Source of the DNA: Halogeometricum borinquense DSM 11551
GTDB taxonomy: Archaea > Halobacteriota > Halobacteria > Halobacteriales > Haloferacaceae
NCBI RefSeq assembly: GCF_000172995.2
Contig: NC_014736.1
Location: forward strand, 60,001-92,000
Direction: 5' to 3'
DNA length: 32,000 nt
Shown: positions 2,161 to 29,535 of the stretch, piece after piece
How positions within the stretch are numbered: position 1 is the stretch's first letter
How the letters are laid out: every line of letters begins with the position of its first letter
Translations under genes and position numbers: made by a program
Notes under the pieces: generated by a model
What the model was told of the DNA's origin: nothing
Databases searched by the model: none
What the model saw: the letters and a program-made list of their open reading frames with translations, nothing else

Positions 2161-3411
2161 CTAAACAAGATCAACAGATCTGAGATCATCCATCCGGCCT
2201 CTATTCATCATACCTCGGAGAGTTCGCGCAAATTCTTCGGGTTTTTCGAGACCTCTGAGTCGGAGATTCTCGCTCGTCGAACACTGAATCTCGACAGGAA
2301 ACTGGTCGGCTGGAAGCGGGTCGAACACTGACAGGAACTTCCAGCGACGTGAGTCATCAGCCACCGAAAGAGAGCTAATCTCCGTATACTCGAGAGTCCA
2401 CTGCGGCTCATCAAGATACGTATCATATGCTACGAGCGCATCGTCGTGGAGGCGGTACTCGACGTTAGCGCGACCCAACCAGATGGTAATCAGTGTCACC
2501 GGGGCGAAAACAAGCGGGGAGACGACGAGGACAACGGCAATGCCGTAAAGCGCAGGCGTGAGTCCCCACACTAACAACAGGAAAAAGAACAGGGCAAATT
2601 CGAAACCCCTGCCAAACGCGTACACGAGGCCGTCGTGAATCGCCCAGTTACGCACCACTCGTTTATCGTTTCCGAACATTGATCGCGGCTCACTGTCCGG
2701 TGTCGGGAGTGGCTGTTCAGTGTTGTCGCTGCCCGGGTTGAACGTAAGTGGCCACGGGCCGATGCCGGCTTCACGGAAATCGAACGGGAGTTTCGGCATG
2801 AAAACGACCATCGTCGCGGCGGTGACGGACACAGTGGTCGGATCTGCGTTGGAAACAACCAAAACGGCGAAACAGGCGATGAAAGCAGTGTAAAGCAGTT
2901 CGCGGCTTCGGCGGATCGTTTGCGCCCCAGAATCCTCGTACATCCCCATCGACTGCCACGTGTCCACGATCAGGTAGTGTTTGGCGGCCAAGAGACAAAC
3001 CGTGGGTACGGCGGAGAGTGCGAAACCCCCCGCTAACGGTTCGAGACCCTGCCACGTCAACATCACGACCGGGGATAACACCCAGAAGATAATCCACTGG
3101 TCGATTACGAATGGGATATTCCGTGGGTACAGCGGGGGAAGTCGATCAGAGAGATGGAGATGACCTCGTTTGTCCAATACCGCGTCGTAGAGATCTTCAA
3201 AAAACCGAACCCAATCCATCGGTGGCATGGCGTCGCCGCGTGGACGCCCGGCGGCCAGTCGCTCAAAGAGGATACGACCAATCCCGAGAAGCGCGTCCAC
3301 GACGAAGAGAACGGCGATTGTGAACTGACTCTGTGAGAAGAGCGCTCCAAGGAAAATAAAAAGGTTCGAGAATAAGACGATGAGAAAGAGCCGAACTCGT
3401 CTCCAGTGCAT
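2161..3411 (-). CDS. Polytopic membrane protein, function unknown; possible bPH (YdbS/YdbT-like) C-terminal domain
   Basis: 416-aa ORF with many long hydrophobic segments (LFLIVLFSNLFIFLGALF, FALFFFLLLVWGLTPALYGIAVVLVVSPLVFAPVTLITIWL, and others). The soluble tail (VEYRLHDDALVAYDTYLDEPQWTLEYTEISSLSV...VEIQCSTSENLRLRGLEKPEEFARTL) resembles bacterial PH-like domains that follow a TM hairpin. The overlapping ORFs in other frames are short shadows. Confidence 0.7.
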   Translation of the reverse strand: MHWRRVRLFLIVLFSNLFIFLGALFSQSQFTIAVLFVVDALLGIGRILFERLAAGRPRGDAMPPMDWVRFFEDLYDAVLDKRGHLHLSDRLPPLYPRNIPFVIDQWIIFWVLSPVVMLTWQGLEPLAGGFALSAVPTVCLLAAKHYLIVDTWQSMGMYEDSGAQTIRRSRELLYTAFIACFAVLVVSNADPTTVSVTAATMVVFMPKLPFDFREAGIGPWPLTFNPGSDNTEQPLPTPDSEPRSMFGNDKRVVRNWAIHDGLVYAFGRGFEFALFFFLLLVWGLTPALYGIAVVLVVSPLVFAPVTLITIWLGRANVEYRLHDDALVAYDTYLDEPQWTLEYTEISSLSVADDSRRWKFLSVFDPLPADQFPVEIQCSTSENLRLRGLEKPEEFARTLRGMMNRGRMDDLRSVDLV

Positions 3412-4393
3412 TTAGATGTGCGTCATTGATGACTCACTGATAAAATGCATTCGATGAAATGATTTCACGATCCAAGAGATCGGTCCACCCTGTCCAATAC
3501 GAATTATTCAAACACGACGACTGTGGCCCCGTCAAGAATGAATGTGATCGTGCGTGCGCGCTACCTTAAGACCAAGAGCGACTCAGTAGGTGACCGGAGT
3601 CAACTAAGCGAGCAATCGGTCAGGCTAACGTGACATTCATCGAAAAGTATATGTTATCATACCACACACAAATGAACGGGGAGGCAGGGACAGATCGGTG
3701 GTCGGATTTCCCATACTCCCACAGAGGCACCTACTCCGTGGTTTGCTCCCAGCGGTTCAGGGTGGGCGAGTTTTCGCCACCGGGCACCCCACCAATACTG
3801 GGGGCATCCACTACTCGTTGCTAGCAGTTCCCGTGACACTTTACGCTGGAGTGTTCAGTGGATTCGAGTTCCTTCTGTAAGGGACGACGAAGTTCGAAAA
3901 GTCGATGAAACCAAAACCAGATTGTCCCGAGTTACACCTCGTATATTAGTACTACAAAGAAGCTATGCTCATCTGTCACTACTATATCCAGATGTAGTTA
4001 TATATTTGAAGAGTTGAACGGATAATAGCCAGAGATAAGATCTTTTTGCCTCTACCGAGAGATAGTGAGATAAAAAGCCGCTCGTTTGTCACGAAATGGA
4101 AGAGAGCAAATTTCCAAGAACCATCAGCAGTCAGCAGAGCAATGTAGCCGATCTGCCCGAATGGTTTATCATGACATGCGAAGCGTGATATTCGGAGTAT
4201 TACTGTCTGTAGACAGTCAAGATCATCATCTTTATATCTCGGAAGACATTTCAATGTACTAAGTAAATGTGTGAATCGAAAAATACCGGTCTGGGTCTTT
4301 CTTTCCAGTCCGTGCATGTAACCGGAGTTCTTGGAGAGAGAATCGGTCACCGGCTCATCAAACCAGTACACCAGTCAACCCATCTATAAGAGC

Positions 4394-5560
4394 ATGATTC
4401 GGCTGTTCTCTAAAGTTCAAACCATAATCGGGCGCGTCCGCAAGCGACTCGGGCCAATTCTCCCCGTTCTCCTAACGGCCTTGATAGTCGCACTCCTCGT
4501 GTGGGGCGCGAGCCATATATTCAGTCTTCTCCACACCGTTCCGCAAGTCATCATTCCCGGCCTGTTCAGTGACAGTCCCCTTTGGAAGATCAAACCGCAG
4601 TACGTTGTCTTCATTGCTGCGTTCATCTTCGGGGCGCTTATCGGGACGTGGTATTTCGTCTATCGTCCGAACAGAGAGACGGTCATCGAATACTGGCAGC
4701 AAATTCCCACGTGGATTCGGGCGACTACACTCGGGTTCGGAGGTGCAGTTTTAGTTACTATCGTCCTTCTTTCCCTCGGCACCCATTGGGAAATCCCCGA
4801 CCTCGTCGTCTTAGCCGCGTTCCTGGTCTCGTGGCCGCTGACGACCGGGATAGTTATCCTCTCCAATCGTTGTATTGGCGGCGACTGCCCCCGCTCGACG
4901 TCGATTAGAATCGGCTACATGCACGCGAGAGGGTTAGAGAGTCGAACGATGGCGATTATCGTCGGCGCGTTAGTCGCAGTCGTCGGTGGATTCGTGACGT
5001 GGGCCGTCTCGATCCGCGTCGCAGACTGGGACTCAGTACTCCTGGCGACGGTCGTTGCAGTCCTGTTGTGGATGCTCGCAACGGTGATCGTCTACAACCG
5101 ATACGAGGCACAAACTGCTGAGCGAACTGGTCTGGCGATCACAGATGTCAACCGTCCAGAGGCTCGAACAACGTGGGAACTAGCGATCAAGAACGAGTCG
5201 AACTCGACTATCGATCTGTCGCTGGCGAGAATCCGCGACACGAAATTCGACCTCTACCGGTTTGGAGTCGATACGGACCTCGGACCTGGTGCAGTCTGTA
5301 CGTTCAACGCCCCCGAGGACTTCCGACTGGCACCGAACGATGACTCATGGGAACTCCCGCTCGGCTACACGCTCAAGCAAGGATCACAAACCCCCGTAAT
5401 CCTGACGCGGGGTGGGGAGATGTACGCACTTCAACGGGATCGACTCGATACCGAAGGCGACGGCTCGTCGGAGACTGACGCCAGCGATTCGAGCATGGGG
5501 GAGAGTCAGCACCCCAGTCTATCAGGGCAGAGTCCTGAAGACCCATCGCCACAGGACTAA
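4394..5560 (+). CDS. 6-TM membrane protein with a C-terminal soluble beta-rich domain and acidic tail; first gene of the island, function unknown
   Basis: Track ORF 4331..5560 begins at TTG. I prefer the in-frame ATG at 4394 (MIRLFSKVQTIIGRVRKRLGPILPVLLTALIVALLVW...). About six hydrophobic helices are followed by ~150 aa of soluble sequence (TWELAIKNESNSTIDLSLARIRDTKFDLYRFGVDTDLGPGAVCTFNAPEDF...) and a D/E/S-rich tail. The gene is on the same strand as the giant ORF and lies 110 nt upstream of it. Confidence 0.7.
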   Translation: MIRLFSKVQTIIGRVRKRLGPILPVLLTALIVALLVWGASHIFSLLHTVPQVIIPGLFSDSPLWKIKPQYVVFIAAFIFGALIGTWYFVYRPNRETVIEYWQQIPTWIRATTLGFGGAVLVTIVLLSLGTHWEIPDLVVLAAFLVSWPLTTGIVILSNRCIGGDCPRSTSIRIGYMHARGLESRTMAIIVGALVAVVGGFVTWAVSIRVADWDSVLLATVVAVLLWMLATVIVYNRYEAQTAERTGLAITDVNRPEARTTWELAIKNESNSTIDLSLARIRDTKFDLYRFGVDTDLGPGAVCTFNAPEDFRLAPNDDSWELPLGYTLKQGSQTPVILTRGGEMYALQRDRLDTEGDGSSETDASDSSMGESQHPSLSGQSPEDPSPQD

Positions 5561-5670: not shown

Positions 5671-8600
5671 GTGGCACGCGGGAACACTAACAGCGAAGCA
5701 CATATGACTCGAGAACGCTCAAACCTCACGCTCGAATCATCCGGTCGTGATATCGGCACACTCACCGACACTGACGCGGTCAACTCGATAGACCCCGCTG
5801 TTACGTCTCTCGCAACGACAGGCGGTCTCGAACAGCGAATCAGTTCGATTGCAACGCTCGATACGGCACGTCTCGGTGGGACGTTTGCACAGCGAATCAT
5901 CCGCAAGCGAGGTGCAGCCACCCTCATCTTTCGGTCGTTGCAGAACGCCGTCCAAGACGACACGCCCGACGAAGCCGAACCATCGGATGACTTCTACTCT
6001 ATTTCGTATCCGTCTCTCGAAGAAACATATCCACAGTACGACTCGGAAACTCCCGAGTGGGAAACTCCGGACAGCGGTACGGCACGTGCTGACCCTCCGC
6101 TACGAACAACACGTCCCAGCACCCCGGACCTCACTGTTCAACAATCGGACGCTCCGCAACCGCAAACACACGAAGTCACCCAAAATCCCAACTCGCTCCA
6201 GTCGGAGGCGGCGCCGGACCAGACAGCGCAGAGTTGGCTCGACGAAGACAGCGATACACCAAAATCCGGAGTGACAGCCGAGGCTGAAACTGAGTCCGGA
6301 CAGCACAGAACGGATACCCCGTCTAGCGTCGTCTCAACACCAACCACTAGCGGACAGAACAGCGGGCGTGCCGGGAGCCACCGGCCATCAGTAGAGCGTA
6401 CCGACGCTGCCATTCGAACAGTTAGCCAGCAGCTTCGTCGCGTAAGCCGCCGAGCCACGGGCGCTCGAACCGTCCTCGTGGACCAAACCGATACCGACTC
6501 GACGACGCTCGCTGGCCAGTCCAACCAGCCGTTATCCACTCTCACTGGTCAAACCAACCAGCAATCAACCACGCCCACTAGTCAAACGAACCGACAGCCC
6601 ATCTCGACGGATGAATACCGTGCAGGCGACAGCAACAGACAACAGCAAACGCCGACAGTCGCACCGTCTGCATCGTCTCCCTCGCCCACAGTTCTGTCCG
6701 AACACGAGACAGAATCGTCCACATCATCCTCGACCAGCGGTAAACGGATATCTAACCAGCGGACAGCGCACGAATCGCGACTCACGGGCACGCAACACGA
6801 AAGCGGACACTTGCAAGGTTCGAGGGCGAGTACGCCCAAGGCACGTCAGCGACGCATTCCCCGAACCGATTCGTCGCAGTCACCTACTGCAGGTACGACG
6901 ACCGCCCACGAGACATCGGTCAACCGCTCGGCAAACCCCCAGAAATCGAACGGGCAGCGATCCGCGCTGTGGACACCCGCTGCCACTGCTTCGAACCGCT
7001 CACCAGAATCAGCAGTACGGGCATCACCCACGACAGAGAGACCAAACAGTACCGAGTCAACGACGCAGCGTTCACTGTCGGGGTCACACGAGCGATCAGC
7101 TTCGAGTACTTCACTCCGAGCCACTGCGTCTACGATTCCAGGCCCGGATGTCGAAACCCCGGTGCGTGCGACGACACGAACCCGTGGAATAGCCGCAGGA
7201 CGGGAATCAAATCAGACCCTAACCAGTCCCAGTCGAACGGCCGCAGAGCGCGAACCAACTCAGCGACCGAGTGGAACGACGGTGACAGCGAGCGATTCAT
7301 CGCAGCCAACCGCCCCCACAGCAGACAGCGGTCCGTTCCAGCCATCGTTAGGAGTAACCCCGACGACAGTACTAGACACACCAGTTCAACGACAACCGGG
7401 AAGTACGCAAGAGAGTGCAGTCCAGCGTGCCAACTACGAGTCGGCGACGACATCGACACGGACGCGCGTTGTCGATACGACGAACGCAACTACCGCAAGT
7501 CCAGTCGAATCTACGAGTCCGACGGACAGTGATTCGACGCCGTCGAACCGAGACTGGTCAACGCCAACCAGCACGCCGACGCAAGGATCGCGACGGACAC
7601 TCACCCGAGTATCCGACACGGGCACAGGGAAGGAGCGCACCGCCGAGGGTCAACTTCGTTCACCGTGGTCGCAGTCGCATTCCTCTCAGATGAAGACAGC
7701 AGCAGACACATCGGCCACATCGACCACAGCAGCCACATCGGGCGACCGCGTCGGGTCCATATCGGGAGCGATAGAGACTGCAAATCGGGCGCGAACCGAA
7801 ATCGCCGAGAACGACTCGTATCCGAACAGACCGACCGCGAGCAGTACGGATCCATCTACAGCAGCCGACAGGCTCAGCAGGCAGGAGTTCGGGGAGGTGG
7901 ACACCGCAAACCGAGCGAGAACCCAAACGAGAACTGGTGTCTCTGCGAGCGGCACGGACTCGAGCGTCCCGGCCACAAGGAGTTCGGCCACCTCCGAGTC
8001 GGCTAACGGACTCGACAGTCAGGTGTCGAACCGGTCGGGATCAGTTGCCCCGGAGAACTCAACTCGTCCGAACTCCCACGTTCAGAGCCAGCGAACTGCA
8101 ACACGTACGATAGATCATCTAACAGTACATCGCCTGTCGAGTCAGTCAGCGATCACAGACGGGACAACCGGAAGTAGCCTCCAGCGAACCCACGCGATGG
8201 GTGGTGCGAAACGCGCACTCACAGCGGGGACTCAAAGACGGCCGGAGACATCGACTACTCGCCGCGAGCAGGTGAGCGACAGTTCTCCGGCGCAACCGAC
8301 GACACAGAGTGCCCAGTCGGACACCGCACTGTCCGCGGGCGACGTCCGCGCGCGTGACAGTTACGCCACTGGGGCAACTCGCACCCGCTTCAGACAGCAT
8401 GCAGAGTCGCAATCGCTCCAAGCACTTGATTCGGGAAGTAATCGGGACACGGAATCGCCGTCGCCATTGTCGTCGCCGTCTACTGACGATATCACCGCTA
8501 GTGAGGGGCGCATCACCAGAGCGAGTCGTACCGAGGCAGTACAGCCCAGCGATTCCCACTCCGTCCAACCGCTCAATGCCGGTGACCGTCGAGCCACAGA

Positions 8601-11600
8601 GTCGTCGCCGACCATCGACGATGTGAGTTCTCGCGGGGAACACACCACCGAAACAGGTCGGTCTCAGACAGGGACCCGTCTGTCGAACCAGTCGGCGGTC
8701 GCAGATGTTCCAACCGGCGGAATCATCCAGCGAACTCACACACTGGGAAGTGTCGAACACCGGCTTACATCGACCATTCGAGAACACTCACTCATGTCGG
8801 GAACGAACCGCAAACAGGTGAGTGCACGGTCACGACCGCAGTCGGCCGCGACGAAAGTGCGTACCCAGTCAGGTACGTTGCCGGCGGCCGGCAGCAGCGG
8901 TTCTCGTGAGGGAGCCACCAGCGAGGCAGACGGTGCCCGCGCTGTACAGCACACAGAATCCCGTTCGCCACAAGCACCCGATGTTGGCGAGGGGCGAAGT
9001 ACACAGTCGGTCTCGCCGTCGCTGTCGGAGTCACCTGCTCAGTCCCGAGGTGTTCAGAAAACATCCCAAGCGAGTCGCCGGTCTACAGGAACGCCGGAAC
9101 TGTCCACTGAAGCACCCGAGACTCAACAGCCGGTGCGCCACTCATCCCACACAAACGTCCCTCCGGCTACGAACGTACCTGTCACTACGAACACCACTAC
9201 TGCGACCACACCCCACGCCACGAATTCGTCCTCTACGACGACGACCCCGCAGACGACGAATTCCGCCGCCACTACGAGCACCCCTCGCACTACGGACTCC
9301 CTTCGGGCGCGGCACGCGCAGAATACAGCCGAAAGCGGAGAGACAACGGCAGAAAGCGGGGAGATAACGGCATCTCGTCGGGAAGAACAGCGAATCAGGG
9401 AGACGACCCCACACCTGAGAGACCAGCGCTCGTCCAACGTTCGCAGCCAAGCGCGGGGGCAACCGACGACACAGACCGGCACACGCACTGTCGCACTACC
9501 TACGGTCGAGTCTGGGATTCGGAGACCGAGTGCAACAGACCCCGATAGTCGAACGTGGACAGATCAAGTGTCCACCCACGGGACGGACGAGACAGCCTCA
9601 GGTCGATTGCGGAACGTCGATGCGCCCACCTCTCTCCAGCAAACGTTCACGCAAGGGGGGCAAGCTCGGTCGCCGGCCCCCAGCCAACCCGCATCCGCTG
9701 AGATAGTGTCGGGAGCGGAGACGCAGTCGTCTGATCGTCCAGCGCTCATACCGCGGTCACGGCGGCGCAGTCAGCGACCTTCCAACGAGTCCACCCCCGG
9801 CAATCGTGACACTCCCACGGACCCAAGCCGTGATGTCGCAACCGGAGACTACTCGACGGATACGGACGCGTCGCTCCACGAGGACGAGTTCCGTCCACAA
9901 CAGTCGGTCGGATACGACACGCCCGGATGGTCCAACGAATCAAGTCCGCTCACTGCTCTCGGGATGTCGGACGCAACTGGGAAAACAGGGCTGTCGGTAA
10001 TTGGACACGAGGTGTTCGAACGCGCCAGTCGATCCAGCCGACTCGGTAGCCGAACGAATCCGACCAGCGGCCGAACGAATCCGACCAGTGGCCGAACGAC
10101 GACCGATTCGGAGGCCCGACGCGTCGTCTCGCCGGGGTCTCCTGACGCACCGTCGTCAGAGACGAGAACGTCCCGTACGACAGTCTCCGATCACTCGAAT
10201 CATCAGTCTGCTCGTCCGCCGTCAACCGACTCCGTAGAGGACGCGGCATGGGACGTGTCATCCCAGTTGGCGCGTACAGCAACGCAGTACGCTGCAAACG
10301 TAGCGGCCAACCGTCGGAGCCAGCAATCGGAGTCCGTCCCCAAAACGGTAGCACAGAATGTGCGCCGCTCGGATGCTCCCCGTAACGACGTCAGTGAGCC
10401 AGCGTCACAAGTGACAAGTGGGCAAGAGACCCGGGACCCTGTGCAGAATCCAGATGCACCGGGCAACAACGCTCAGACGGAATTCAAGTACTTGCAATCA
10501 GCTCCATCGGCAAGCCAGAGATGGGCAAACGAAGGAGCGTCCGGACAGGCGTCGCCAACGAGTGGCACGGTCCGTCAGAGACAGAATATCGGTGGTTCAG
10601 GATTCGAGACAGCTGTTGTGCAGCGGTATCAGCCAGCCGCGGTTAGCACGCCAGCCTTGGATTGGGTTTCCGAAACGATGCAGTCTGATGCGACTCAACT
10701 GGCACAGTCGCACCGCAGTCACTCGAACGAGTCGGGACAGAATCCGGGTGGAAAGACGCTTCGAGGACGCGCCGGCGGAACAGACGATCCGACCGCACTG
10801 GTGCGTGGGAGCGCACCGTCGTCTCCAGCGGTCGATCAGAGACAGCACCGAAGCGCTAGCGAAACGAGTGCGCGTCAAGCCGTTCGTCAACGAGGCGCGT
10901 CTGAGAGCGAAACCGTTCCCCAACCGGGCGCGTCCGAGGCCGACACCGCTCGCCGACCGAACGTATCCGGAGGCGACGGGGAAATGCCAACGCCGAGTGT
11001 GAACCCACGGGCGTCCGAGAGAGTATCATTCCCGACTGCGCTATCGTCGTCTAGGCGTTCGGCTACAAAGACCCGTTCCACGCGGACAGAGGCCTCGACC
11101 GGTATCTCCGCAAAGACATCGTCCGCCGATTGGCCCACCCAGTCATCAGAGACGCTGTCATCAGCCACGGCGGTAAGCGATGATACCGAAAGCGCTGTGC
11201 AACGGTCTAGGACGGGGAACTCTGTGAATCGGTCAGGACAACCGAATCTGACTGGAGCGAGTGAGATAGCAGACACGAGCGGGGCATCACCGAGCGTCTC
11301 ACCCGCTGCACGGGTGTTCGCCCGAGCAAACAAAGCTCGTACCGCGGTTGAGGGAACTCGTACTTCGGCCGAAGGGGCTCACACTTCGGGTGAAGATACC
11401 CGCTCTTCGGCTGAAGAGACACAGACAACAGTCGAAGGTGCCCAAGCCAGAGTCGAAGCAACCCGTACTGCGGTCGAGGGAACCCGGACGACGGTCAGAG
11501 AGGCAACCGATGACGGGAACGCTAATCGAGATGGCTCAGTAGTAGATTCCGGTGTGAAATCGGAATCCGATAGCGACAGAGCGGATTCGACTCGGTCCAG

Positions 11601-12282
11601 TCCGTCGATGAGCGGCGGGATAGTGGCCGGCGATAAAACATCACTTGGCGAAAAAGTTAAATATAAAAACAGGAATATCGAATATAACACCACAGATGAG
11701 GGACGGAGCAGGAAAACCAGTGGAGTCGAGCGGATGAGCATGCCGAAACCACAGACTGAGCCGTCACTCGTATATCGACAGGAGCGTTCGCCTGCTACGG
11801 GTCAGCAGAACGACGACCGCGTCGCCGGCGACACTCAACGCGCTGGTCTGACTGGCGAATCGCTGCACGGTCAGCCAAGAGCGAACCAACAGCAGCCATC
11901 GCACATGGCGCGTTCCTCGACTCGCCAGGGCAACTTCACCAGCGGGGTAGGCACGAATCAAGGGCCAACTGAGCAAGACCGGCATGGAATCCAACGACAA
12001 GGCACTGCGTCCCATCGCGGTGATACGGTCAGCGGTTCTCCCTTCGACTCTAACGGCCCACAGAACACGGATCTACGTTCCGCAACCTCACAAACAGGTG
12101 TCAGCGGGCATCCCTCTGAGAACGACCACTCACAACGTGCCCAAGGTCGTATCGACGACCTCGATATTCAGCTGAGCGACCAGTCGCTACAACTCAACGC
12201 TGACGTTGACCGACTGGTCGATGTACTGTACCGGAAACTAGAACGCAAACGCCGGATGGAGCGACAACGGAGAGGATTCTAA
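5671..12282 (+). CDS. Giant (~2200 aa) low-complexity R/S/T/Q/P/A-rich protein in the tape-measure position of the CIS operon; function unknown
   Basis: A single 6.6-kb open frame, while all competing ORFs on both strands are under 200 aa. The start is uncertain (GTG 5671 or ATG 5704). The stop TAA at 12280-12282 abuts the ATG of the LysM gene at 12283. There is no N-terminal signal peptide or TM segment. Most of the protein is compositionally biased. Only the first ~100 aa and the last ~60 aa (IDDLDIQLSDQSLQLNADVDRLVDVLYRKLERKRRMERQRRGF) look like ordinary helical protein. Confidence 0.8.
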   Translation: MARGNTNSEAHMTRERSNLTLESSGRDIGTLTDTDAVNSIDPAVTSLATTGGLEQRISSIATLDTARLGGTFAQRIIRKRGAATLIFRSLQNAVQDDTPDEAEPSDDFYSISYPSLEETYPQYDSETPEWETPDSGTARADPPLRTTRPSTPDLTVQQSDAPQPQTHEVTQNPNSLQSEAAPDQTAQSWLDEDSDTPKSGVTAEAETESGQHRTDTPSSVVSTPTTSGQNSGRAGSHRPSVERTDAAIRTVSQQLRRVSRRATGARTVLVDQTDTDSTTLAGQSNQPLSTLTGQTNQQSTTPTSQTNRQPISTDEYRAGDSNRQQQTPTVAPSASSPSPTVLSEHETESSTSSSTSGKRISNQRTAHESRLTGTQHESGHLQGSRASTPKARQRRIPRTDSSQSPTAGTTTAHETSVNRSANPQKSNGQRSALWTPAATASNRSPESAVRASPTTERPNSTESTTQRSLSGSHERSASSTSLRATASTIPGPDVETPVRATTRTRGIAAGRESNQTLTSPSRTAAEREPTQRPSGTTVTASDSSQPTAPTADSGPFQPSLGVTPTTVLDTPVQRQPGSTQESAVQRANYESATTSTRTRVVDTTNATTASPVESTSPTDSDSTPSNRDWSTPTSTPTQGSRRTLTRVSDTGTGKERTAEGQLRSPWSQSHSSQMKTAADTSATSTTAATSGDRVGSISGAIETANRARTEIAENDSYPNRPTASSTDPSTAADRLSRQEFGEVDTANRARTQTRTGVSASGTDSSVPATRSSATSESANGLDSQVSNRSGSVAPENSTRPNSHVQSQRTATRTIDHLTVHRLSSQSAITDGTTGSSLQRTHAMGGAKRALTAGTQRRPETSTTRREQVSDSSPAQPTTQSAQSDTALSAGDVRARDSYATGATRTRFRQHAESQSLQALDSGSNRDTESPSPLSSPSTDDITASEGRITRASRTEAVQPSDSHSVQPLNAGDRRATESSPTIDDVSSRGEHTTETGRSQTGTRLSNQSAVADVPTGGIIQRTHTLGSVEHRLTSTIREHSLMSGTNRKQVSARSRPQSAATKVRTQSGTLPAAGSSGSREGATSEADGARAVQHTESRSPQAPDVGEGRSTQSVSPSLSESPAQSRGVQKTSQASRRSTGTPELSTEAPETQQPVRHSSHTNVPPATNVPVTTNTTTATTPHATNSSSTTTTPQTTNSAATTSTPRTTDSLRARHAQNTAESGETTAESGEITASRREEQRIRETTPHLRDQRSSNVRSQARGQPTTQTGTRTVALPTVESGIRRPSATDPDSRTWTDQVSTHGTDETASGRLRNVDAPTSLQQTFTQGGQARSPAPSQPASAEIVSGAETQSSDRPALIPRSRRRSQRPSNESTPGNRDTPTDPSRDVATGDYSTDTDASLHEDEFRPQQSVGYDTPGWSNESSPLTALGMSDATGKTGLSVIGHEVFERASRSSRLGSRTNPTSGRTNPTSGRTTTDSEARRVVSPGSPDAPSSETRTSRTTVSDHSNHQSARPPSTDSVEDAAWDVSSQLARTATQYAANVAANRRSQQSESVPKTVAQNVRRSDAPRNDVSEPASQVTSGQETRDPVQNPDAPGNNAQTEFKYLQSAPSASQRWANEGASGQASPTSGTVRQRQNIGGSGFETAVVQRYQPAAVSTPALDWVSETMQSDATQLAQSHRSHSNESGQNPGGKTLRGRAGGTDDPTALVRGSAPSSPAVDQRQHRSASETSARQAVRQRGASESETVPQPGASEADTARRPNVSGGDGEMPTPSVNPRASERVSFPTALSSSRRSATKTRSTRTEASTGISAKTSSADWPTQSSETLSSATAVSDDTESAVQRSRTGNSVNRSGQPNLTGASEIADTSGASPSVSPAARVFARANKARTAVEGTRTSAEGAHTSGEDTRSSAEETQTTVEGAQARVEATRTAVEGTRTTVREATDDGNANRDGSVVDSGVKSESDSDRADSTRSSPSMSGGIVAGDKTSLGEKVKYKNRNIEYNTTDEGRSRKTSGVERMSMPKPQTEPSLVYRQERSPATGQQNDDRVAGDTQRAGLTGESLHGQPRANQQQPSHMARSSTRQGNFTSGVGTNQGPTEQDRHGIQRQGTASHRGDTVSGSPFDSNGPQNTDLRSATSQTGVSGHPSENDHSQRAQGRIDDLDIQLSDQSLQLNADVDRLVDVLYRKLERKRRMERQRRGF
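8128..8478 (+). repeat. Module A of a diverged ~117-121-aa internal duplication within the giant ORF
   Basis: HRLSSQSAITDGTTGSSLQRTHAMGGAKRALT...QVSDSSPAQ...RFRQHAESQSLQALDSGSNRDTESPSPLSSP aligns by eye with module B: TRLSNQSAVADVPTGGIIQRTHTLGSVEHRLT...QVSARSRPQ...RAVQHTESRSPQAPDVGEGRSTQSVSPSLSESP. Confidence 0.6.
8674..9036 (+). repeat. Module B of the diverged internal duplication within the giant ORF
   Basis: See module A. The shared skeleton is RLSxQSAhxDxxTGxxhQRTHxhGxxxxLT ... QVS ... QHxESxSxQAxDxG. Confidence 0.6.
9325..9372 (+). repeat. Coding 21-nt tandem repeat (about 2.3 units; TAESGET/TAESGEI)
   Basis: acagccgaaagcggagagaca / acggcagaaagcggggagata / acggca. The two full units match at 17 of 21 positions. 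Confidence 0.65.
10050..10099 (+). repeat. Coding 21-nt tandem repeat (about 2.4 units; RTNPTSG)
   Basis: ccgaacgaatccgaccagcgg / ccgaacgaatccgaccagtgg / ccgaacga. There is one mismatch between the full units. The protein reads SRTNPTSGRTNPTSGRTT. Confidence 0.8.
11335..11502 (+). repeat. Coding degenerate 21-nt (7-aa) tandem repeat, 8 units
   Basis: ARTAVEG TRTSAEG AHTSGED TRSSAEE TQTTVEG AQARVEA TRTAVEG TRTTVRE. The heptad periodicity is read directly from the translation. Confidence 0.7.
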
Positions 12283-12951
12283 ATGGGTACCTCAGGTAAA
12301 CTAGAGAAAGCACAGATCATCATCCTGAACGGGAACCACGAAAACACGACTATCGACTGCAAGTTCAATCCAAACTCGTACACGCTCGAAAAAAGCGTTA
12401 ACTACGGGGAACTGAAGGCGACTGGCTCGGGCGCATCCGTCCAGCAGTTCGTCGATGGAAACGCTGAGCGACTGTCGATGGAACTGTTCTTCGACACCAC
12501 CGACGAGGTTGACTCAGCCAAATCCGTCGATAAGGTCGATGTCAGAGAGCAGTACACGAAGTACATCGATCTACTGCTCTCCGTGGACGGCGAACTCCAC
12601 GCACCACCAGTATGTCGCTTCGTCTGGGGGAAAGGAATCGACTTTACGGCACTTGTCCACAGTGCAAACAAGCAATTCACGAAGTTCCTCCCCAGCGGTG
12701 TACCGGTACGCGCACGCGTGTCCATTGTATTTCAGGAGTTCAAAACGGCCGACTACCACAAATCCGAGGTCTCTCCGGAGTCCACTGACAAAACGAAAGT
12801 CTGGACAGTGAGCGAAGGAGACACGCTTTGGCTCATCGCATCCGAGGAGTACAGCGACCCGGCACACTGGCGAACGATTGCTGAACACAACAACCTCGAG
12901 AATCCCCGAGATATCCAAGCGGGACAGAAACTCGAACTGCCGCCTCTGTAA
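12283..12951 (+). CDS. CIS tube-initiator-like protein with a C-terminal LysM domain (Afp7 / P2 gpX-like role)
   Basis: The N-terminal tube-fold signature (KAQIIILNGN...IDCKFNPNSYTLEKSVNYGELKATGSGASVQQFVDGNAERLSMELFFDTT) matches the FNP...W/Y...G...QF.GG...L.L.L.FD pattern of CIS tube/initiator proteins. The C-terminal LysM domain is WTVSEGDTLWLIASEEYSDPAHWRTIAEHNNLENPRDIQAGQKLELP. The ATG immediately follows the stop of the giant ORF. Confidence 0.9.
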   Translation: MGTSGKLEKAQIIILNGNHENTTIDCKFNPNSYTLEKSVNYGELKATGSGASVQQFVDGNAERLSMELFFDTTDEVDSAKSVDKVDVREQYTKYIDLLLSVDGELHAPPVCRFVWGKGIDFTALVHSANKQFTKFLPSGVPVRARVSIVFQEFKTADYHKSEVSPESTDKTKVWTVSEGDTLWLIASEEYSDPAHWRTIAEHNNLENPRDIQAGQKLELPPL

Positions 12952-12953
12952 GC

Positions 12954-13982
12954 ATGGCTCCAGGAATCAACAACCACCCGGCCTACTCGCCGCGATTCAA
13001 AGTCGAGGTCGGGAGTAAGAAGTTCCAAGAACCCGGCGGACGGATCGCTGACCTCGTCGTCGAGACGACGTTCGATGGGGCCGACCGGTTCTCGTTCACG
13101 CTGAACTATCCGTTCGACGAGGAGCGAGACCAGTTCGCCGGACTCGACTGGGACCTGTTCAGCATCGGGACCGACGTCGAAATTGCGATGGGATACGGCG
13201 ACAAAGGTCAACTGACGGACCTCTTGACCGGGAAGATCCACTCCATCAACACGGAGTTTACGACAGACAGAGGGCCGTCAGTCCAAGTCTCCGGATACGG
13301 ACTGCTCTGGGAGATGATGCAGGGGACGAACTCGGATTCGTGGGAGAAAACCACGATTGGAGATGCCGTCAAAGACGTCCTGTCGTCGTATTCGTTCTCG
13401 ACGACCAAGGTCAAGAGCGCAAATATCAAGCGGGACAAACTCATCCAAGACGACCGGAGCGACTACAAGTTCGTCGAGCAACTCGCGTCCGCCTACGGAT
13501 TCGAGTTCTATGCGGAGCGCGATACGGTGAAGTTCATACCCCGGTCGTCGCAACCGAACGACAAAGAGCCAGTCGAGGAGTTGTGGTACGGCGAAGACCT
13601 CCACGACTTCTTCGGCGAAATCACCGAACAGCGGCAGAGCCACCAAGTGGAAGTCCGATCGTGGGACATCCACAAGAAAGAGGAGATCAAAGCGACCGCG
13701 GGCAGTCGAAGCGCAAAACACAAAGAAGTCTTCAGAATACCAGCCATGTCACGCGACGAAGCCGAACACATAGCCAAGACGAAACTCGGCAAGTTCTCAG
13801 ACGGAATCGTTCAGGCCCACGGTGAAACCGACGGAATTCCCGCGCTTCGAGCGGGCGTCACGGTGAAGCTTGAAGAACTCGGGAAGCGGTTCTCGGGCAA
13901 ATACCACGTCACGAACGCGACCCACCGGATGGGGACAAGCGGGTATCGAACAACGTTTGAGGCCACGGAGGTGGCTGGATGA
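12954..13982 (+). CDS. Baseplate hub protein, phage late control gene D (gpD) / VgrG N-terminal-like
   Basis: 342 aa. It starts 2 nt after the previous stop. The C-terminal signature GKYHVTNATHRMGTSGYRTTFEA matches the gpD/VgrG hub motif (Y.V..v.H.....GY.T.f). Confidence 0.88.
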   Translation: MAPGINNHPAYSPRFKVEVGSKKFQEPGGRIADLVVETTFDGADRFSFTLNYPFDEERDQFAGLDWDLFSIGTDVEIAMGYGDKGQLTDLLTGKIHSINTEFTTDRGPSVQVSGYGLLWEMMQGTNSDSWEKTTIGDAVKDVLSSYSFSTTKVKSANIKRDKLIQDDRSDYKFVEQLASAYGFEFYAERDTVKFIPRSSQPNDKEPVEELWYGEDLHDFFGEITEQRQSHQVEVRSWDIHKKEEIKATAGSRSAKHKEVFRIPAMSRDEAEHIAKTKLGKFSDGIVQAHGETDGIPALRAGVTVKLEELGKRFSGKYHVTNATHRMGTSGYRTTFEATEVAG

Positions 13983-14722
13983 CGCATCCTGATCTGTTCG
14001 GTGCCGAGCAGTCGGGCGACGACGGCATCCGTGGCGTCGCCGTCGGCATCGTCACGGACAATCAAGATCCGAAGGACCTCGGCCGAGTCAAGTTGCAGTT
14101 CCCGTGGCGAGACGCCGACGACGAAAGCTACTGGGCGCGGATTGCGACGGAGATGGCAGGAAAAGAGTACGGGACGTACTTCCTGCCGGAGGTCGAAGAC
14201 GAAGTTCTCGTCGCGTTCGAGAACGGAGATATCCACAAACCGTTTGTCATCGGGTCGCTGTGGAACGGGAAACAAAAGCCGCCACAGAAGAACAGCGACG
14301 GGAAGAACAACACGCGCGAGATTCGGTCACGAAGCGACCACAAAATCGCGTTCGACGATGCCGATAAGGGGAGTATCACGATTCAAACGAGTGCCGGAAA
14401 CGAGATCGCAATCGACGATTCGGGTGACTCCGAGACGATTGTCGTTCGTGACGAGAAAAACGACAACAGCATCGCAATCGACTCCGGAAGTGGGTCGGTG
14501 AAGATCGATGCGAAAAAAGAGATTGAGCTGTCGGCACAAAATATCAAGATAAACGGCAAAAAGAGCGTGGACATCTCCGGCAATAAGGGAGTCAAAGTCC
14601 AAAGCAAAGGACAGATGAAGCTCTCCAGCAAAGCAAAATTGGACATCAAAAGCAGCGGTCTCATGAGTGTCAACGCCACAGGGCCCCTCCAGATTAAGGG
14701 CGCTATCATCCAACTCAACTAA
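13979..14722 (+). CDS. Central spike protein, gp5/gpV OB-fold plus beta-helix (VgrG C-terminal-like)
   Basis: ATGA overlap with the gpD-like gene. The OB-fold is GVAVGIVTDNQDPKDLGRVKLQFPWRDADDESYWARIATEMAGKEYGTYFLPEVEDEVLVAFENGDIHKPFVIGSLWNG. A repetitive beta-helix follows (ITIQTSAGNEIAIDDSGD...VKIDAKKEIELSAQNIKINGKKSVDISGNKGVKVQSKGQMKLSSKAKLDIKSSG). Confidence 0.9.
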   Translation: MTHPDLFGAEQSGDDGIRGVAVGIVTDNQDPKDLGRVKLQFPWRDADDESYWARIATEMAGKEYGTYFLPEVEDEVLVAFENGDIHKPFVIGSLWNGKQKPPQKNSDGKNNTREIRSRSDHKIAFDDADKGSITIQTSAGNEIAIDDSGDSETIVVRDEKNDNSIAIDSGSGSVKIDAKKEIELSAQNIKINGKKSVDISGNKGVKVQSKGQMKLSSKAKLDIKSSGLMSVNATGPLQIKGAIIQLN

Positions 14723-15049: not shown

Positions 15050-15448
15050 ATGTCTGAAGACTTTCTTGGCAAAGGCTGGGCCTACCCAGTGCGACCGGAT
15101 CACCGAGGTAACATCGAACTCTCAGAAACCGACGACGACATCAAAGAGTCCATCCGCATCATCCTCGGGACCGCCAAAGGCGAACGTGTCATGCGCCCCG
15201 ACTTCGGGTGCGACATCCACGACCACGTCTACTCGGCCGCCACCCCCGCCACGCTGAACGTCATCGAGACTAGCGTTCGGGAAGCGCTCGTGCGCTGGGA
15301 GCCGAGAATCGACATCGAAGACGTCGAAGCGTTCACCGACGAGGACGACCCCAACAAGATACTCATCAATATCGACTACCGGGTTCGTACCACGAACGCA
15401 CTCGCAAACATGGTCTATCCCTTCCACATCACGGAGGGTGATGGATGA
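15050..15448 (+). CDS. Baseplate wedge protein, GPW/gp25 family
   Basis: 132 aa: FLGKGWAYPV...IKESIRIILGTAKGERVMRPDFGCDIHDHVY...VREALVRWEPRI. This is the canonical gp25/gpW signature (GER.mrPdFG). Confidence 0.9.
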   Translation: MSEDFLGKGWAYPVRPDHRGNIELSETDDDIKESIRIILGTAKGERVMRPDFGCDIHDHVYSAATPATLNVIETSVREALVRWEPRIDIEDVEAFTDEDDPNKILINIDYRVRTTNALANMVYPFHITEGDG

Positions 15449-18400: not shown

Positions 18401-18639
18401 CACTGACTGGCAAAGACGGGAAGGGCTGGTCGTTCGGTGAACTCCCCAGTTCCGACACACTCGTTCAGCGCCTCAACGACCTTGAAGAGGTCGCAGAGAC
18501 GGTCGAAGCGACGACGTACGTCGAAATAAACGGTGAGCGCCGTGCACTCACCGAACGGACAGCAGACGAGATTCTTCCGCAGAACACCCTCGTCTGCAGT
18601 GGCCAGCACGATCTCAGAATCACCATGGACATGGAGTGA
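15445..18639 (+). CDS. Large Baseplate_J-like baseplate assembly protein (gp6/gpJ/Afp11-like)
   Basis: ATGA overlap with the gp25 gene, 1064 aa. The N-terminal motif is IDDREEEDLFDELVDRADVYTDDWDPHTSDTGQTILRIFSTFEADVRNRLNSVPQKHRIGFLNAFG. The C-terminal gpJ-like region is GGSDGNVDAGSVSDLKSSISLVDDVSNPESGDGGADVESIDALVSRSANRIKHRGKAVTPSDYEQVA. It contains an acidic low-complexity insert, EEDSDTSSDESDSTDGSDSAGSSAG. Confidence 0.85.
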   Translation: MTTPPTIDDREEEDLFDELVDRADVYTDDWDPHTSDTGQTILRIFSTFEADVRNRLNSVPQKHRIGFLNAFGFDRRPPKAARVPLTFHVPGDLDRNVVIPGGTQAVAGAGDTSQLFEVPRNKGFEATGASLTDVIAVDPAEDAIVDHSSVLESTESVELFVGENLQQHHLYVANEDALNLQPGSMLSITAQVDIETEAFADAVVWEYYGEDESGDEGWHPLVPPQKRANTATADSGIEAVKEQLRERDSSDYDTLAGSQSVSGSVAADQSVYEGTFQIPGTITKRSVNGIESRWLRCRLTDRNRDVFSTSVRDLAVHVGSTDDVNGLEPDHLLSNDVPLSTDDGNIKPLGQLPQPPTSFYVACEEAFTKSGGTITLKFHPPEEDSDTSSDESDSTDGSDSAGSSAGRGADIGVIGGEPRLSWEYWNGDGWAQLDSVNDETDTFHNAGTVTFQVPDDIDPTTVSGHENVWIRARLVSGNYGQPSINVPENDVFDGLNSDPDPPVFGDVSIQYEHRGQPFDTVFRHNNASYSDDLTERIEAYAPFQDLPDDGQTVYLGFDDSLHDGPLTLFVPIDDTTYPQSFDPGMEWEYCTSPSEFSWTELDVRDRTGGFTERGIVTLTFPEETTAFDLFGRTRHWIRIRTTQDEFERPETAQQSQGPATARTVADRSSRTTTPPLLEGLHLNTRWAYNKRTIEDEILGSSDGSHDQSFRCAHAPMITIEVWVDEVSTLSAGERRTLLEERPNDVERVFDDRGDLAEFWVRWTNVEDFLDSGPTDRHYVVNKTLGTIEFGNGDNGAIPPSGQDNVRATYTTGGGSDGNVDAGSVSDLKSSISLVDDVSNPESGDGGADVESIDALVSRSANRIKHRGKAVTPSDYEQVALSEFRELSTVKCESTSDGDETRVTVIIVPETERDKPVPSMALKHQVRDVLTDCAPATVVESDDMDIVVRGPGYAEISVQATIRAPNLKSVSLLKQTIRRELDEYLHPLTGKDGKGWSFGELPSSDTLVQRLNDLEEVAETVEATTYVEINGERRALTERTADEILPQNTLVCSGQHDLRITMDME

Positions 18640-18643
18640 TACG

Positions 18644-29115: not shown

Positions 29116-29169
29116 CCTCCCGTGGCTTCTTGTTTGGCGTGTGGTTCTGGCTGCGATGTGTCCAGCACT

Positions 29170-29289
29170 GTCGAGTACGACCCGAACTCCGCGGAGGCCA
29201 GCACGTCCTCGCTCACGAGCTCGCGCACGTTCGCCAGCAGACCGGCGGCGCAGTGTCGATGCTCCCGCAGACGGGCGAACTCGAAATCG
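29170..29289 (+). pseudogene. Fourth DUF4157 stub remnant, frameshifted and lacking any C-terminal module
   Basis: The sequence gtcgagtacgacccgaactccgcggag-gccagcacgtcctcgctcacgagctcgcgcacgttcgccagcagaccggcggcgcagtgtcgatgctcccgcagacgggcgaactcgaaatcg aligns to [38 protein letters not shown] of copies 1 and 2. One base is missing in the gaa-ggc codons (around 29196-29198), so EYDPNSAE and [11 protein letters not shown] fall in different frames. Homology stops at about 29289, and AT-rich sequence follows. Confidence 0.7.
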
Positions 29290-29535
29290 CCCACCGAAAT
29301 CGGTTCCATACTATCCACCAGATATTATCATGGACTACTATTTTGTCGATCAGAACGGATCAATCCTGATGCAGAGTATATCAGTAACGAAATTCAAGAA
29401 AAGAGACAGATCCGAATTGTTGATCCAAACACGTGAAATCGGAAGAGACGCGTAACCAGCACGCTCAGTAGTTCTCATCCCGACTGTAACCACAGATCAC
29501 CGCTGTGGGAGGTTAGTCCGCACGAGATCGAGAGA

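Follow-up and report, generated by a model that had tools for sequence, protein, structure and literature searches.

How does a contractile injection system attain a set length, several hundred nanometers, when its gene cluster has been described as lacking a ruler? The locus of Halogeometricum borinquense is the only archaeal contractile injection system (CIS) that has been characterized by experiment. In the published study, cis14 and cis6 were reported as missing from the cluster, homologues of a tape measure, plug, or crown were stated not to exist in it, the cluster was begun at cis7, and the gene that precedes cis7, Hbor_38630, was unmentioned (PMC11566945). Homologues of afp14 have likewise been reported absent from lineage II in surveys of the eCIS, and a typical tape measure has been reported absent in studies of Streptomyces. 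Here we present evidence that Hbor_38630 is probably the tape measure that determines the length of the haloarchaeal clade-IIa CIS, as a functional counterpart of Cis14/Afp14.

The window analyzed here is the whole stretch of 32,000 nucleotides from H. borinquense DSM 11551 (NC_014736.1, positions 60,001 to 92,000). The large open frame and its neighbors within it are the following.

4331..5560, + strand: membrane-protein gene with about six transmembrane segments by hydropathy (seven overlapping calls), probably Hbor_38620
5671..12282, + strand: maximal open frame from GTG 5671 to TAA 12280-12282, 2203 codons with a stop-free translation
5704..12282, + strand: probable CDS of Hbor_38630, ATG start, 2192 aa, 231.9 kDa
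12283..12951, + strand: cis7 (Hbor_38640), CIS_tube + LysM tube initiator, whose start adjoins the stop of Hbor_38630
12954-13982, + strand: cis8a (gpD-type hub), presumed docking partner
13979-14722, + strand: cis8b (gpV-type spike), presumed docking partner

The name Hbor_38630 was given to the large frame by locus-tag numbering, with cis7 being Hbor_38640 in Table S1 of the published study (PMC11566945). Hbor_38620 is the candidate membrane anchor proposed in that work (PMC11566945). Scans of the window for Rfam families and tRNAs returned no matches, and a scan for sigma-70 promoters and terminators, which is irrelevant for an archaeon, returned nothing above shuffled sequences.

An earlier sequence-only reading of this DNA had described an uninterrupted 6.6-kb frame whose stop directly abuts the next ATG. 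Both observations were confirmed: there are no internal stops in 5671..12282, the remaining five frames contain 41-68 stops each, and TAA 12280-12282 is followed at once by ATG 12283 of the gene for the CIS_tube + LysM protein. The length of 2203 codons stands for the open frame from GTG 5671; the start of the gene is instead probably ATG 5704, since the resulting Met1 matches the Met1 of the homologues (P0002 and the H. larsenii frame) and that of the 2192-aa protein ADQ69177.1. The product of 5704..12282 is identical to GenBank ADQ69177.1 / UniProt E4NVV7 (100 % self match), which is located on plasmid pHBOR03 of H. borinquense. The GenBank product name, a DUF457 membrane-bound metal-dependent hydrolase, is an annotation error, as no Pfam family is found at E <= 0.01 and there is no segment that resembles a transmembrane helix. 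The highest Kyte-Doolittle value of any 19-aa window is 0.68, in agreement with the earlier statement that the protein has no transmembrane segment.

The RefSeq annotation of Hbor_38630 covers the terminal 182 aa only (8 % of the gene), and PGAP-type annotations of four genomes similarly call the C-terminal 177-224 aa and omit the rest. The GC3 of the gene is 0.59, versus 0.66-0.74 in the neighboring genes, and its GC2 of 0.63 is atypical; the C-terminal-only calls of the gene finders are therefore explained. The same annotations (RefSeq/PGAP and one GenBank annotation) and the same atypical GC3 and GC2 could be taken to mean that only the last 180-224 codons constitute a gene and that the 2000 codons upstream are untranslated or a decaying pseudogene. 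The low-complexity sequence and its small tandem repeats could also be read as a chance or compositional ORF, or as an assembly artifact of a repetitive, GC-rich region.

The comparison of related loci speaks against both readings. In ~30 haloarchaeal CIS loci, an open frame of 1063-2388 codons occupies the same position and ends 0-15 nt from cis7. Its length is ~2365 aa in Haloferax elongans, 2153 in Natrinema pallidum, 2059 in N. gari, 1851 in N. altunense, ~1400-1500 in Natrialba spp., and ~1063 in Haloarchaeobius amylolyticus. Between close pairs, the indels are in frame in 19/20, 12/12, 18/18, 14/14, 4/4, and 1/1 cases, with sizes of 3-750 nt. The substitutions between close relatives are concentrated at codon position 3, and when the same substitutions are placed randomly, 5-25 stops are expected, whereas 0 are observed. 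The ratio dN/dS is below 1 along the entire frame, and a conserved N-terminal domain is found at its far end. Two strains of H. borinquense, assembled independently, carry an open frame of 2192 and 2213 aa, respectively, with 91 % identity, and a stop density of 41-68 per 2203 codons in the other frames yields nothing near such a length by chance. We thus rejected both proposals: a gene confined to the last 180-224 codons is very unlikely, and a spurious frame is scarcely credible. The question of frame integrity that the earlier reading had raised is answered by selection that has kept the frame across genera. On the evidence of sequence comparison, the frame 5671..12282 is a real coding gene.

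The composition of the protein is strongly biased. Serine (15.4 %), threonine (14.1 %), arginine (9.8 %), alanine (9.7 %), glycine (6.8 %), glutamine (6.8 %), and proline (6.6 %) together make up 69 % of the residues, while F+W+Y account for 2.0 % and I+L+V+M for 11 %, much as the sequence-only reading had noted. Its description of an arginine-rich, basic protein among acidic neighbors holds in part. The neighbors are acidic (pI 4.2-5.5) and arginine is enriched relative to them (9.8 % vs 3-8 %), but the protein is neutral rather than basic, with D+E at 11.2 %, K+R at 11.0 %, a net charge of -5, and a pI of 6.9. Most of its orthologues from other haloarchaea have a basic pI, as high as 11.6. 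The body of the protein and the repeats within it are listed below, the repeats as found by a repeat scan.

6109..11649, + strand: low-complexity hypervariable body (S/T/R/A/Q/G/P), predicted coil, in which composition and frame are kept and sequence and length are not
6521..6592, + strand: in-frame tandem repeat, period 33
7707-7741, + strand: tandem repeat, period 9
9331-9372, + strand: tandem repeat, period 21
10049-10099, + strand: tandem repeat, period 21
10880-10959, + strand: tandem repeat, period 33
11452-11508, + strand: tandem repeat, period 21

The periods of all six repeats are divisible by 3, and they look like traces of length change via in-frame duplication. The dN/dS of the body is 0.54-0.71, versus 0.00-0.04 for cis7 at similar dS, and its evolution is thus nearly neutral.

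Structure was modeled using AF2 for aa 1-1200 (as a single sequence) and for the segment 11608-12279 (the last 224 aa). In these models the pLDDT is ~30 over aa 1-1200, aa 81-1200 are coil, and the pLDDT is < 50 over most of the last 224 aa ahead of the terminal helix. The earlier proposal that the protein is disordered rather than helical is therefore consistent with the predictions, which give coil apart from the last ~52 residues. The charge-hydropathy plot is a crude indicator, as a baseplate protein also falls on its "disordered" side, and TOP-IDP was uninformative for the disorder of Hbor_38630.

Conservation is confined to three parts of the protein: a domain of ~100 aa at the N-terminus, a pair of short sub-terminal motifs, and the C-terminal helix.

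5704..6108, + strand: N-terminal conserved domain, ~aa 1-135 with a core at ~aa 10-100, from jackhmmer, dN/dS, and AF2
11650..11784, + strand: sub-terminal motifs EKVKYKNRNIEYN and PQTEPSLVYRQE, conserved relative to P0002 and Haloferax
12118..12273, + strand: predicted C-terminal alpha-helix of ~52 aa, AF2 residues 171-222 of the segment 11608-12279
12196..12279, + strand: family signature NADVDRLVDVLYRKLERKRRMERQRRGF at the extreme C-terminus, from conservation across loci and an HMM

The N-terminal domain, for which AF2 predicts short helices at aa 30-34, 43-46, and 61-80, begins the long ORF in 15 haloarchaeal loci and is absent from the bacterial ORFs (jackhmmer, fetched loci). Its dN/dS is 0.15-0.17 in Natrinema pairs. 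Of the sub-terminal motifs, PSLVYR / PSLTYR was found again in 6-8 orthologues. The helix proposed earlier for the C-terminus is predicted with confidence over the last ~52 residues: 10-residue blocks of its core have mean pLDDT values of 92-98, and it is the sole high-confidence structure in the modeled parts. It ends in ...LYRKLERKxRxERxRRG[FL]. A motif of the type RxERxRxG, which the first reading had named, ends the gene upstream of cis7 in every one of the ~30 haloarchaeal loci. Of the 49 bacterial loci collected, 22 have it too, with a diverged version of the NADVDRLVDVLYRKLERKRRMERQRRGF signature. Using an HMM of the haloarchaeal tails, the ORFs upstream of cis7 were top-ranked among 9112 six-frame ORFs, and in 1.84 billion proteins the signature was matched 45 times, always at the C-terminus of the protein. 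A search with the whole protein against a 5.8-billion-protein database gave the protein itself and one homologue among the matches listed; low-complexity words dominate such a search, and the C-terminal query was more productive. BLASTP aligned the first 550 aa only of the H. borinquense and H. larsenii proteins, and the conservation of their C-termini was shown by a global MAFFT alignment.

The architecture of the protein is thus that of a ruler, with both ends conserved, a variable middle, a C-terminal helix, and coil elsewhere. Its gene also lies where phage-type clusters encode a tape measure, after the tube/chaperone genes and before the hub/tube-initiator genes of a contractile tail. This slot, which the sequence-only reading had assigned, was corroborated in unsplit clusters of Bacillota and Verrucomicrobiota, where the genes run in the order sheath, tube, small ORF, tube, the gene with the same C-terminal motif, and cis7; the homologous gene sits between tube/cis5 and cis7. 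Homologues found via the C-terminal motif alone, independently of cis7, are linked to CIS genes in three of three metagenome loci. There is no rival candidate for the tape measure. The orthologous cluster of H. larsenii has only ORFs of 50, 176, and 89 aa between its two tube genes, and no cis14 was found in the published locus study (PMC11566945).

Sequence membership in the Afp14/Pvc14/Cis14 or phage tape-measure families was not supported. No homology to a tape measure was found in Pfam, NCBIfam, PHROGs, or the PDB chains, whether the query was the entire protein, one of its ends, or a bacterial counterpart, including a less biased homologue from Bacillota. The alpha-helical central region of known tape measures is likewise not predicted in Hbor_38630, the modeled body of which is coil. 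Furthermore, Hbor_38630 is not among the reported proteins of the H. borinquense sheath preparations or of the CIS-dependent secretome (PMC11566945), for which it may be noted that the RefSeq entry holds the last 182 aa only. These points stand against a role as a ruler.

The size of the protein can be compared with the length of the particle. The published contracted sheaths of H. borinquense measure 220 +/- 16 nm with a rise of 17.09 A, which corresponds to ~129 rings. With the 38.5 A rise of CIS-Sc, the inferred extended length is ~496 nm; with the empirical ratio of extended to contracted CIS-Sc, it is ~361 nm. Arithmetic from the ring count only gives ~500 nm, but for the Streptomyces CIS it yields lengths ~36 % above those measured, and the range was therefore widened to 360-500 nm. 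With 2192 aa, this range corresponds to 0.165-0.226 nm per residue, for one organism and with a length uncertainty of ~30 %. The experimentally validated coefficient of the AlgoCIS ruler is 0.229 nm/aa, and the slope across CIS is 0.2156. The proposal that the length of the protein serves as a ruler is consistent with the published sheath length (0.17-0.23 nm/aa, versus 0.216-0.229 nm/aa as measured for eCIS), for a single data point with an inferred extended length. The 7 % spread in sheath length favors a ruler; against it, the authors call the sheath lengths heterogeneous, with a range of 121-274 nm.

A mechanism can be proposed from these results. Hbor_38630 is translated in full and coupled to cis7, to judge from a frame under selection and a stop that abuts the next start. 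The amphipathic C-terminal helix with its RERRG[FL] end would then dock, probably as a trimer, within the lumen of the spike/tube-initiator complex of Cis8a/8b and Cis7, by analogy with the C-termini of phage and eCIS tape measures, which dock there, and with the Cis6 plug, which sits there. The non-helical low-complexity body of ~1850 residues may thread through the growing Cis1 tube, and the N-terminal domain would mark the distal end, at which polymerization would stop and the Cis16 cap would bind. As the comparison of loci shows, only the translation, composition, and length of the body matter; it therefore drifts almost neutrally, and in-frame indels change its length. Such changes would in turn make the weapon differ in length from one species to another.

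Two other roles for a translated protein must be weighed, and the sequence-only reading had offered both as an alternative, a lumen-loaded cargo or a plug. As a cargo or effector, the giant disordered protein would travel inside the tube, be ejected from it on firing, and play no part as a ruler. A precedent is Tme (BN159_7576) of the Streptomyces davawensis CIS, a protein of more than 2000 aa that is ~70 % disordered, is similarly encoded by the largest ORF of its cluster, immediately ahead of the baseplate genes, and binds the spike and the tube initiator (PMC11126660). A disordered chain would fit the ~4 nm lumen, and three chains would fill 13-19 % of it. However, Tme, compared here by its description, has a DUF4157 domain, TM helices, coiled coils, remote homology to tape-measure proteins, and a C-terminal EndA-like nuclease, and Hbor_38630 has none of these. 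Neither PF13699 (DUF4157) nor any other domain was found in Hbor_38630, and its C-terminus is a single helix of the docking type rather than a nuclease. An enzymatic or toxin domain and an adjacent immunity gene are absent, the near-neutral evolution of the body is unlike that of an effector with a target, and the proteins identified as secreted in a CIS-dependent manner included DUF4157 proteins and not Hbor_38630 (PMC11566945). A cargo is therefore quite improbable.

The plug part of the alternative may hold. Hbor_38630 could be an N-terminally extended plug of the Cis6 type or an assembly scaffold. The helix would then close the junction of the spike and tube, and the role of the long tail would be to occupy or lubricate the lumen, or to recruit cargo, with no effect on length. 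Like Cis6/Alg6 (7aef chain t), the protein is encoded directly upstream of cis7, and the cis5-cis7 slot that it occupies holds an ORF of 60-70 aa in other bacterial loci. The profile of these short ORFs weakly matches the "inner protein (Algo6)" 7aef_t of AlgoCIS from residue 1 (E 0.64). In hhalign, the helix of the short ORFs and the one that ends the long family are aligned with a score of 19, compared with <=13.2 in 30 column shuffles and 9.9 for the reversed sequence, and cis6 and cis14 are both among the genes reported missing from the cluster (PMC11566945). The hhalign probability is only 19-29 %, and this similarity between Cis6 and Hbor_38630 lies below conventional significance. Cis6 is a small protein (52-70 aa) composed of a strand at the N-terminus and a helix at the C-terminus, whereas Hbor_38630 has 2192 aa, of which only the last ~30 residues align. 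The ~2000 extra in-frame residues in every haloarchaeal locus and the conserved N-terminal domain are left unexplained by a plug alone, which we regard as unlikely. A plug is compatible with a ruler rather than opposed to it. One protein may even supply both missing parts, as a ruler of ~2000 residues, disordered along its whole length, to which a Cis6-like plug helix is fused at the C-terminus, a possibility that we offer tentatively and with some doubt.

The best-supported reading remains the tape measure first proposed from the sequence, unusually long and disordered, on the strength of the frame, the slot, the linkage, the size, and the lack of a rival cis14. As with Afp14/Pvc14/Alg14 (Cis14) and T4 gp29, the gene lies in a contractile-tail cluster beside the hub and tube-initiator genes, and, as in Cis14 and the phage tape-measure proteins, the termini are conserved, the middle is variable in length, and the C-terminus is the most conserved part. 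Hbor_38630 has no detectable homology to these proteins, however, and its body is predicted to be low-complexity coil where theirs is alpha-helical. At 2192 aa, it has four times the length of Alg14 (526 aa). Whereas cis14 follows cis13 in lineage I, Hbor_38630 precedes cis7.

Partly disordered rulers are found in injectisomes and flagella as YscP and FliK, respectively, with ~0.19 nm per residue for YscP. Hbor_38630 would resemble them in that the length of a tubular assembly is set by a largely unstructured polypeptide inside its channel. The machines and sequences are unrelated, and YscP and FliK differ from an anchored tail protein in being secreted substrates by which export specificity is switched.

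A ruler of this kind would give a testable answer to how such systems reach a defined length, and would extend the tape-measure concept to a protein the body of which has no predicted regular structure. Proteomic and comparative studies based on RefSeq will miss the gene, a systematic failure of annotation. If the fusion of plug and ruler were true, the ...ERxRxERERRG-tailed family would be the long-sought tape measure of the lineage-II eCIS generally; a ruler would need no helical rod, only a translated chain of set length and composition; and closely related archaea would differ in a weapon length that is tuned by frequent in-frame indels. Engineering of particle length for cargo capacity has already been pursued with AlgoCIS. 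Across the haloarchaeal ORFs of 1063 to ~2365 aa, the predicted series of weapon lengths extends from roughly 230 to 540 nm.

The open reading frame at 5671..12282 on the forward strand (2203 codons from a GTG, free of stops in translation) probably encodes a disordered tape measure for the contractile injection system (CIS). The sequence-only reading had described an uninterrupted frame abutting the ATG of the LysM gene, and this was confirmed: the TAA at 12280-12282 is directly followed by the ATG of cis7, the gene for the CIS_tube+LysM tube initiator (12283-12951, +). The true start is likely the ATG at 5704, since it aligns with Met1 of the homologues, giving a product of 2192 aa that is 100% identical to GenBank ADQ69177.1 (210,350-bp contig). 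The source replicon is the H. borinquense plasmid pHBOR03.

The product is composed of S (15.4%), T (14.1%), R (9.8%), A (9.7%), G (6.8%), Q (6.8%), and P (6.6%), together 69%, with 2.0% F+W+Y and 11% I+L+V+M. It has no TM segment, as had been stated from the sequence, and the hydropathy of every 19-residue window is below 0.7. The description as R-rich holds only in relative terms; the protein is neutral rather than basic (pI 6.9, net charge -5, D+E 11.2%) and stands out only beside its acidic neighbours (pI 4.2-5.5). GC1/2/3 is flat at 0.60/0.63/0.59, and the neighbouring genes have GC3 values of 0.66-0.74. The AT skew is strongly positive (A > T). Six small tandem repeats were found within the frame, all with periods divisible by three.

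The GenBank entry contains the full 2192 aa under the product name "DUF457 membrane-bound metal-dependent hydrolase", an identity that is unsupported by any Pfam match or TM segment. RefSeq WP_244880415.1 retains only the last 182 aa. Only the final 177-182 aa survive in RefSeq/PGAP calls, and 224 aa in one GenBank annotation of the H. borinquense gene; shortened calls affect H. borinquense, Haloferax larsenii, H. elongans, and Haloferax sp. S1W. The flat GC profile probably explains the shortening by gene finders. The gene exposes a systematic RefSeq truncation.

Downstream of the frame are found, in order, cis7, a gpD-type hub, a gpV-type spike, gp25, two Baseplate_J proteins, a P2_I-type protein, and two DUF4157 (eCIS_core) proteins. 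Features of the window around the frame are as follows.

1400-2134, + strand: protein of 244 aa encoded directly ahead of the CIS region; carries a CBS domain at its N-terminus and weakly matches Swt1-like HEPN (E 0.0045)
2161-3411, - strand: second multi-pass membrane protein, 416 aa, about 5-6 TM-like segments, without a Pfam family
4331-5560, + strand: 409-aa membrane protein upstream of the long frame, with about six TM-like segments; probably the candidate membrane anchor Hbor_38620 of the published study
15445-18639 and 18533-20584, + strand: consecutive Baseplate_J paralogues cis11a and cis11b

The C-terminal soluble part of the 4331-5560 protein weakly matches the Lamin Tail Domain (E 0.0045; H. 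larsenii orthologue, E 0.0031). From its listed GTG start (18533), cis11b would overlap cis11a by 107 nt; the real start is probably just after 18639, as in the H. larsenii annotation. Zachs et al. (Sci Adv 2024, PMC11566945) investigated this cluster, and their Table S1 assigns cis7 to Hbor_38640; with the membrane protein probably Hbor_38620, the long frame is therefore Hbor_38630 by locus-tag numbering. Those authors report the cluster to be without homologues of the tape measure (cis14), the plug (cis6), and the crown. The cluster is bounded there at Hbor_38640-38890 and Hbor_38630 is nowhere mentioned; no paper citing identifiers of this gene was found in the literature searched.

Eighty loci were fetched via Cis7, of which about 30 are haloarchaeal and 49 bacterial. 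In each of the ~30 haloarchaeal loci, a frame that terminates 0-15 nt from cis7 runs without a stop for 1063-2388 codons, contig permitting, with a shared composition (S+T 21-29%, R 10-17%, K ~1%, aromatics ~2%). Versions of 1851, 2059, and 2153 aa are carried by three Natrinema species, and those of two H. borinquense strains (2192 and 2213 aa) are 91% identical. Closely related pairs (84-99% DNA identity) were used for indel and substitution tests. Frame-preserving indels, 3-750 nt in size, accounted for 19/20, 12/12, 18/18, 14/14, 4/4, and 1/1 per pair, and substitutions were enriched at codon position 3. Random placement of the observed substitutions predicts a mean of 5-25 stop codons; none was observed. 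The dN/dS of the body is 0.54-0.71, with cis7 at 0.00-0.04 at similar dS. The N-terminal domain is below the body at 0.15-0.17 (Natrinema pairs), and the last 210 codons give 0.21-0.48 in most pairs and 0.74 in the least diverged pair.

We conclude from these sequence comparisons that translation covers the entire frame and that selection keeps it open, while the amino acid sequence and length of the product are only weakly constrained. A short gene restricted to the C-terminal part is very improbable, given the in-frame indels and the stops that were expected but not observed. That the frame is an artefact is scarcely credible, because the remaining five frames over the same 6.6 kb each contain 41-68 stops and its length is thus no accident of composition. 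The version of Halapricum sp. CBA1109 (L033, 8580-10022) has 480 codons, with a motif that breaks off after LYRDFERR and runs into cis7, and looks like a frameshift or pseudogene. No N-terminal domain was recognised in the 1063-codon frame of Haloarchaeobius amylolyticus (L021, 6797-9988).

Four elements are conserved: the N-terminal domain, a small number of short stretches within the body, a pair of sub-terminal motifs (KVKYK..EYN and PQTEPSLVYRQE), and the extreme C-terminus (...NADVDRLVDVLYRKLERKRRMERQRRGF). The N-terminal domain (approximately aa 10-100) begins the long frame in 15 haloarchaeal loci and was not detected among the bacterial ORFs of the fetched loci. AlphaFold2 was applied to aa 1-1200 and the last 224 aa. 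The last 224 aa (five-sequence alignment) were predicted to form one helix over the final ~52 residues (core block-mean pLDDT 92-98), with coil elsewhere (pLDDT < 50). From a single sequence, aa 1-1200 were predicted as coil (pLDDT ~30) with only short helices at aa 30-34, 43-46, and 61-80. When 1.84 billion representative proteins were searched exhaustively with HMMER, the C-terminal profile matched only 45 of them, always at the very C-terminus. Their lengths are bimodal, at 31-600 aa (truncated gene calls) and 1340-1904 aa.

[quoted passage not shown] These ORFs are mostly 244-446 aa, with 690 aa in a Bacillota MAG and 1754 aa in Brevibacillus dissolubilis. Of the 9112 six-frame ORFs in the bacterial loci, the haloarchaeal-tail HMM ranked exactly these motif-bearing ones highest, aligned at the C-terminal end (E 1e-4 to 0.2); a second iteration brought in Acidobacteriota-type tails. 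A metagenome scan seeded with the C-terminal motif alone gave a long open frame with cis7 directly downstream in 3/3 loci. The 690-aa relative (L034, 3498-5570) has ordinary composition (K 9%, aromatics 10%) with the same C-terminal motif, and the low-complexity body may therefore be a derived state.

The gene order in unsplit bacterial clusters is sheath, tube, small ORF, second tube (cis5-like), motif-bearing gene, and cis7, which places the motif-bearing gene in the tape-measure position of contractile phage tails. The sheath-tube module of haloarchaea is displaced downstream, and no separate canonical tape measure is found between its two tube genes, where there are only ORFs of 50, 176, and 89 aa (DUF6760).

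L001 (H. larsenii) 28842-29794: 50-aa ORF, 176-aa ORF, and DUF6760 protein between the two tube genes of the sheath module

All three could be chaperones acting on the tape measure; the one of 176 aa weakly matches zinc ribbons and the Mu Gp41 tail-assembly chaperone (E 0.15 for the latter).

Contracted H. borinquense sheaths measure 220 ± 16 nm (n = 100, range 121-274 nm) with a published helical rise of 17.09 Å, corresponding to ~129 rings. The extended length estimated from Streptomyces CIS is ~496 nm by the extended rise (38.5 Å) and ~361 nm by the extended/contracted ratio (230/140 nm). The two differ because ring arithmetic overshoots the Streptomyces measurements, and a range of 360-500 nm is therefore given, or 0.165-0.226 nm per residue for 2192 aa. 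In experiments reported in a 2026 preprint, the length of AlgoCIS is set by Alg14 at 0.229 nm per residue, and the slope across CIS is given as 0.2156 nm per residue (R2 0.84). These values predict 473-502 nm for 2192 aa; an α-helical rod at 0.15 nm/aa would span 329 nm. A protein four times the length of Alg14 thus matches a machine three to four times longer, on one data point with an estimated extended length. By calculation, three chains would take up 13-19% of a lumen 4 nm wide, so that cargo could still be accommodated.

The tape-measure interpretation proposed in the sequence-only reading is supported by how the protein is conserved, where its gene lies, the structure it is predicted to lack, and a size that would suit a ruler. 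The C-terminal helix would be anchored in the lumen of the Cis8-Cis7 complex, probably as a trimer, with the disordered body lining the tube during growth and the N-terminal domain marking the end for cap binding; length would shift between species through in-frame indels of the body. The protein would work like Cis14/Afp14 and phage tape measures; no sequence or profile homology to known tape measures was found in Pfam, NCBIfam, PHROGs, or PDB chains. Known eCIS tape measures have a helical body, whereas this one is predicted to be coil. The nearest published precedent is Tme of Streptomyces davawensis (BN159_7576, PMC11126660), likewise very large, mostly disordered, and encoded upstream of the CIS baseplate genes; unlike Tme, the haloarchaeal protein lacks DUF4157, TM helices, and a nuclease domain. 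Surveys find lineage II to be without afp14 homologues, and published Streptomyces studies report no typical tape measure. A disordered tape measure would fill the stated gap in the only characterised archaeal CIS, is probably general to lineage-II eCIS, and gives direct quantitative predictions.

Other roles for the product are an extended plug or scaffold, which we consider unlikely, and a cargo, which is somewhat less likely again. The Cis6 plug sits in the lumen of the spike/tube-initiator complex. In bacterial loci arranged instead as tube, sheath, tube, x, cis7, the place before cis7 is taken by an ORF of 60-70 aa.

L044, L057, L059, L073, L082, L047, and L069 (bacterial loci), ~200 nt upstream of cis7 in the cis6 position: conserved 60-70-aa ORFs, M.DVRIGEVxTExVVTE...VKRIV...QDR..

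No Pfam family covers these ORFs. From weak profile similarity, the haloarchaeal protein may combine a Cis6-like plug with the ruler, which we hold to be less likely than not but likelier than a plug or scaffold alone; both "missing" genes would then be accounted for. The short-ORF profile weakly matches PDB 7aef chain t, the AlgoCIS "inner protein (Algo6)", with the match starting at residue 1 (E 0.64). Its helix aligned to the C-terminal helix of the long family with an hhalign probability of 19-29% and a score of 19, compared with at most 13.2 for thirty column-shuffled controls and 9.9 for the reversed profile.
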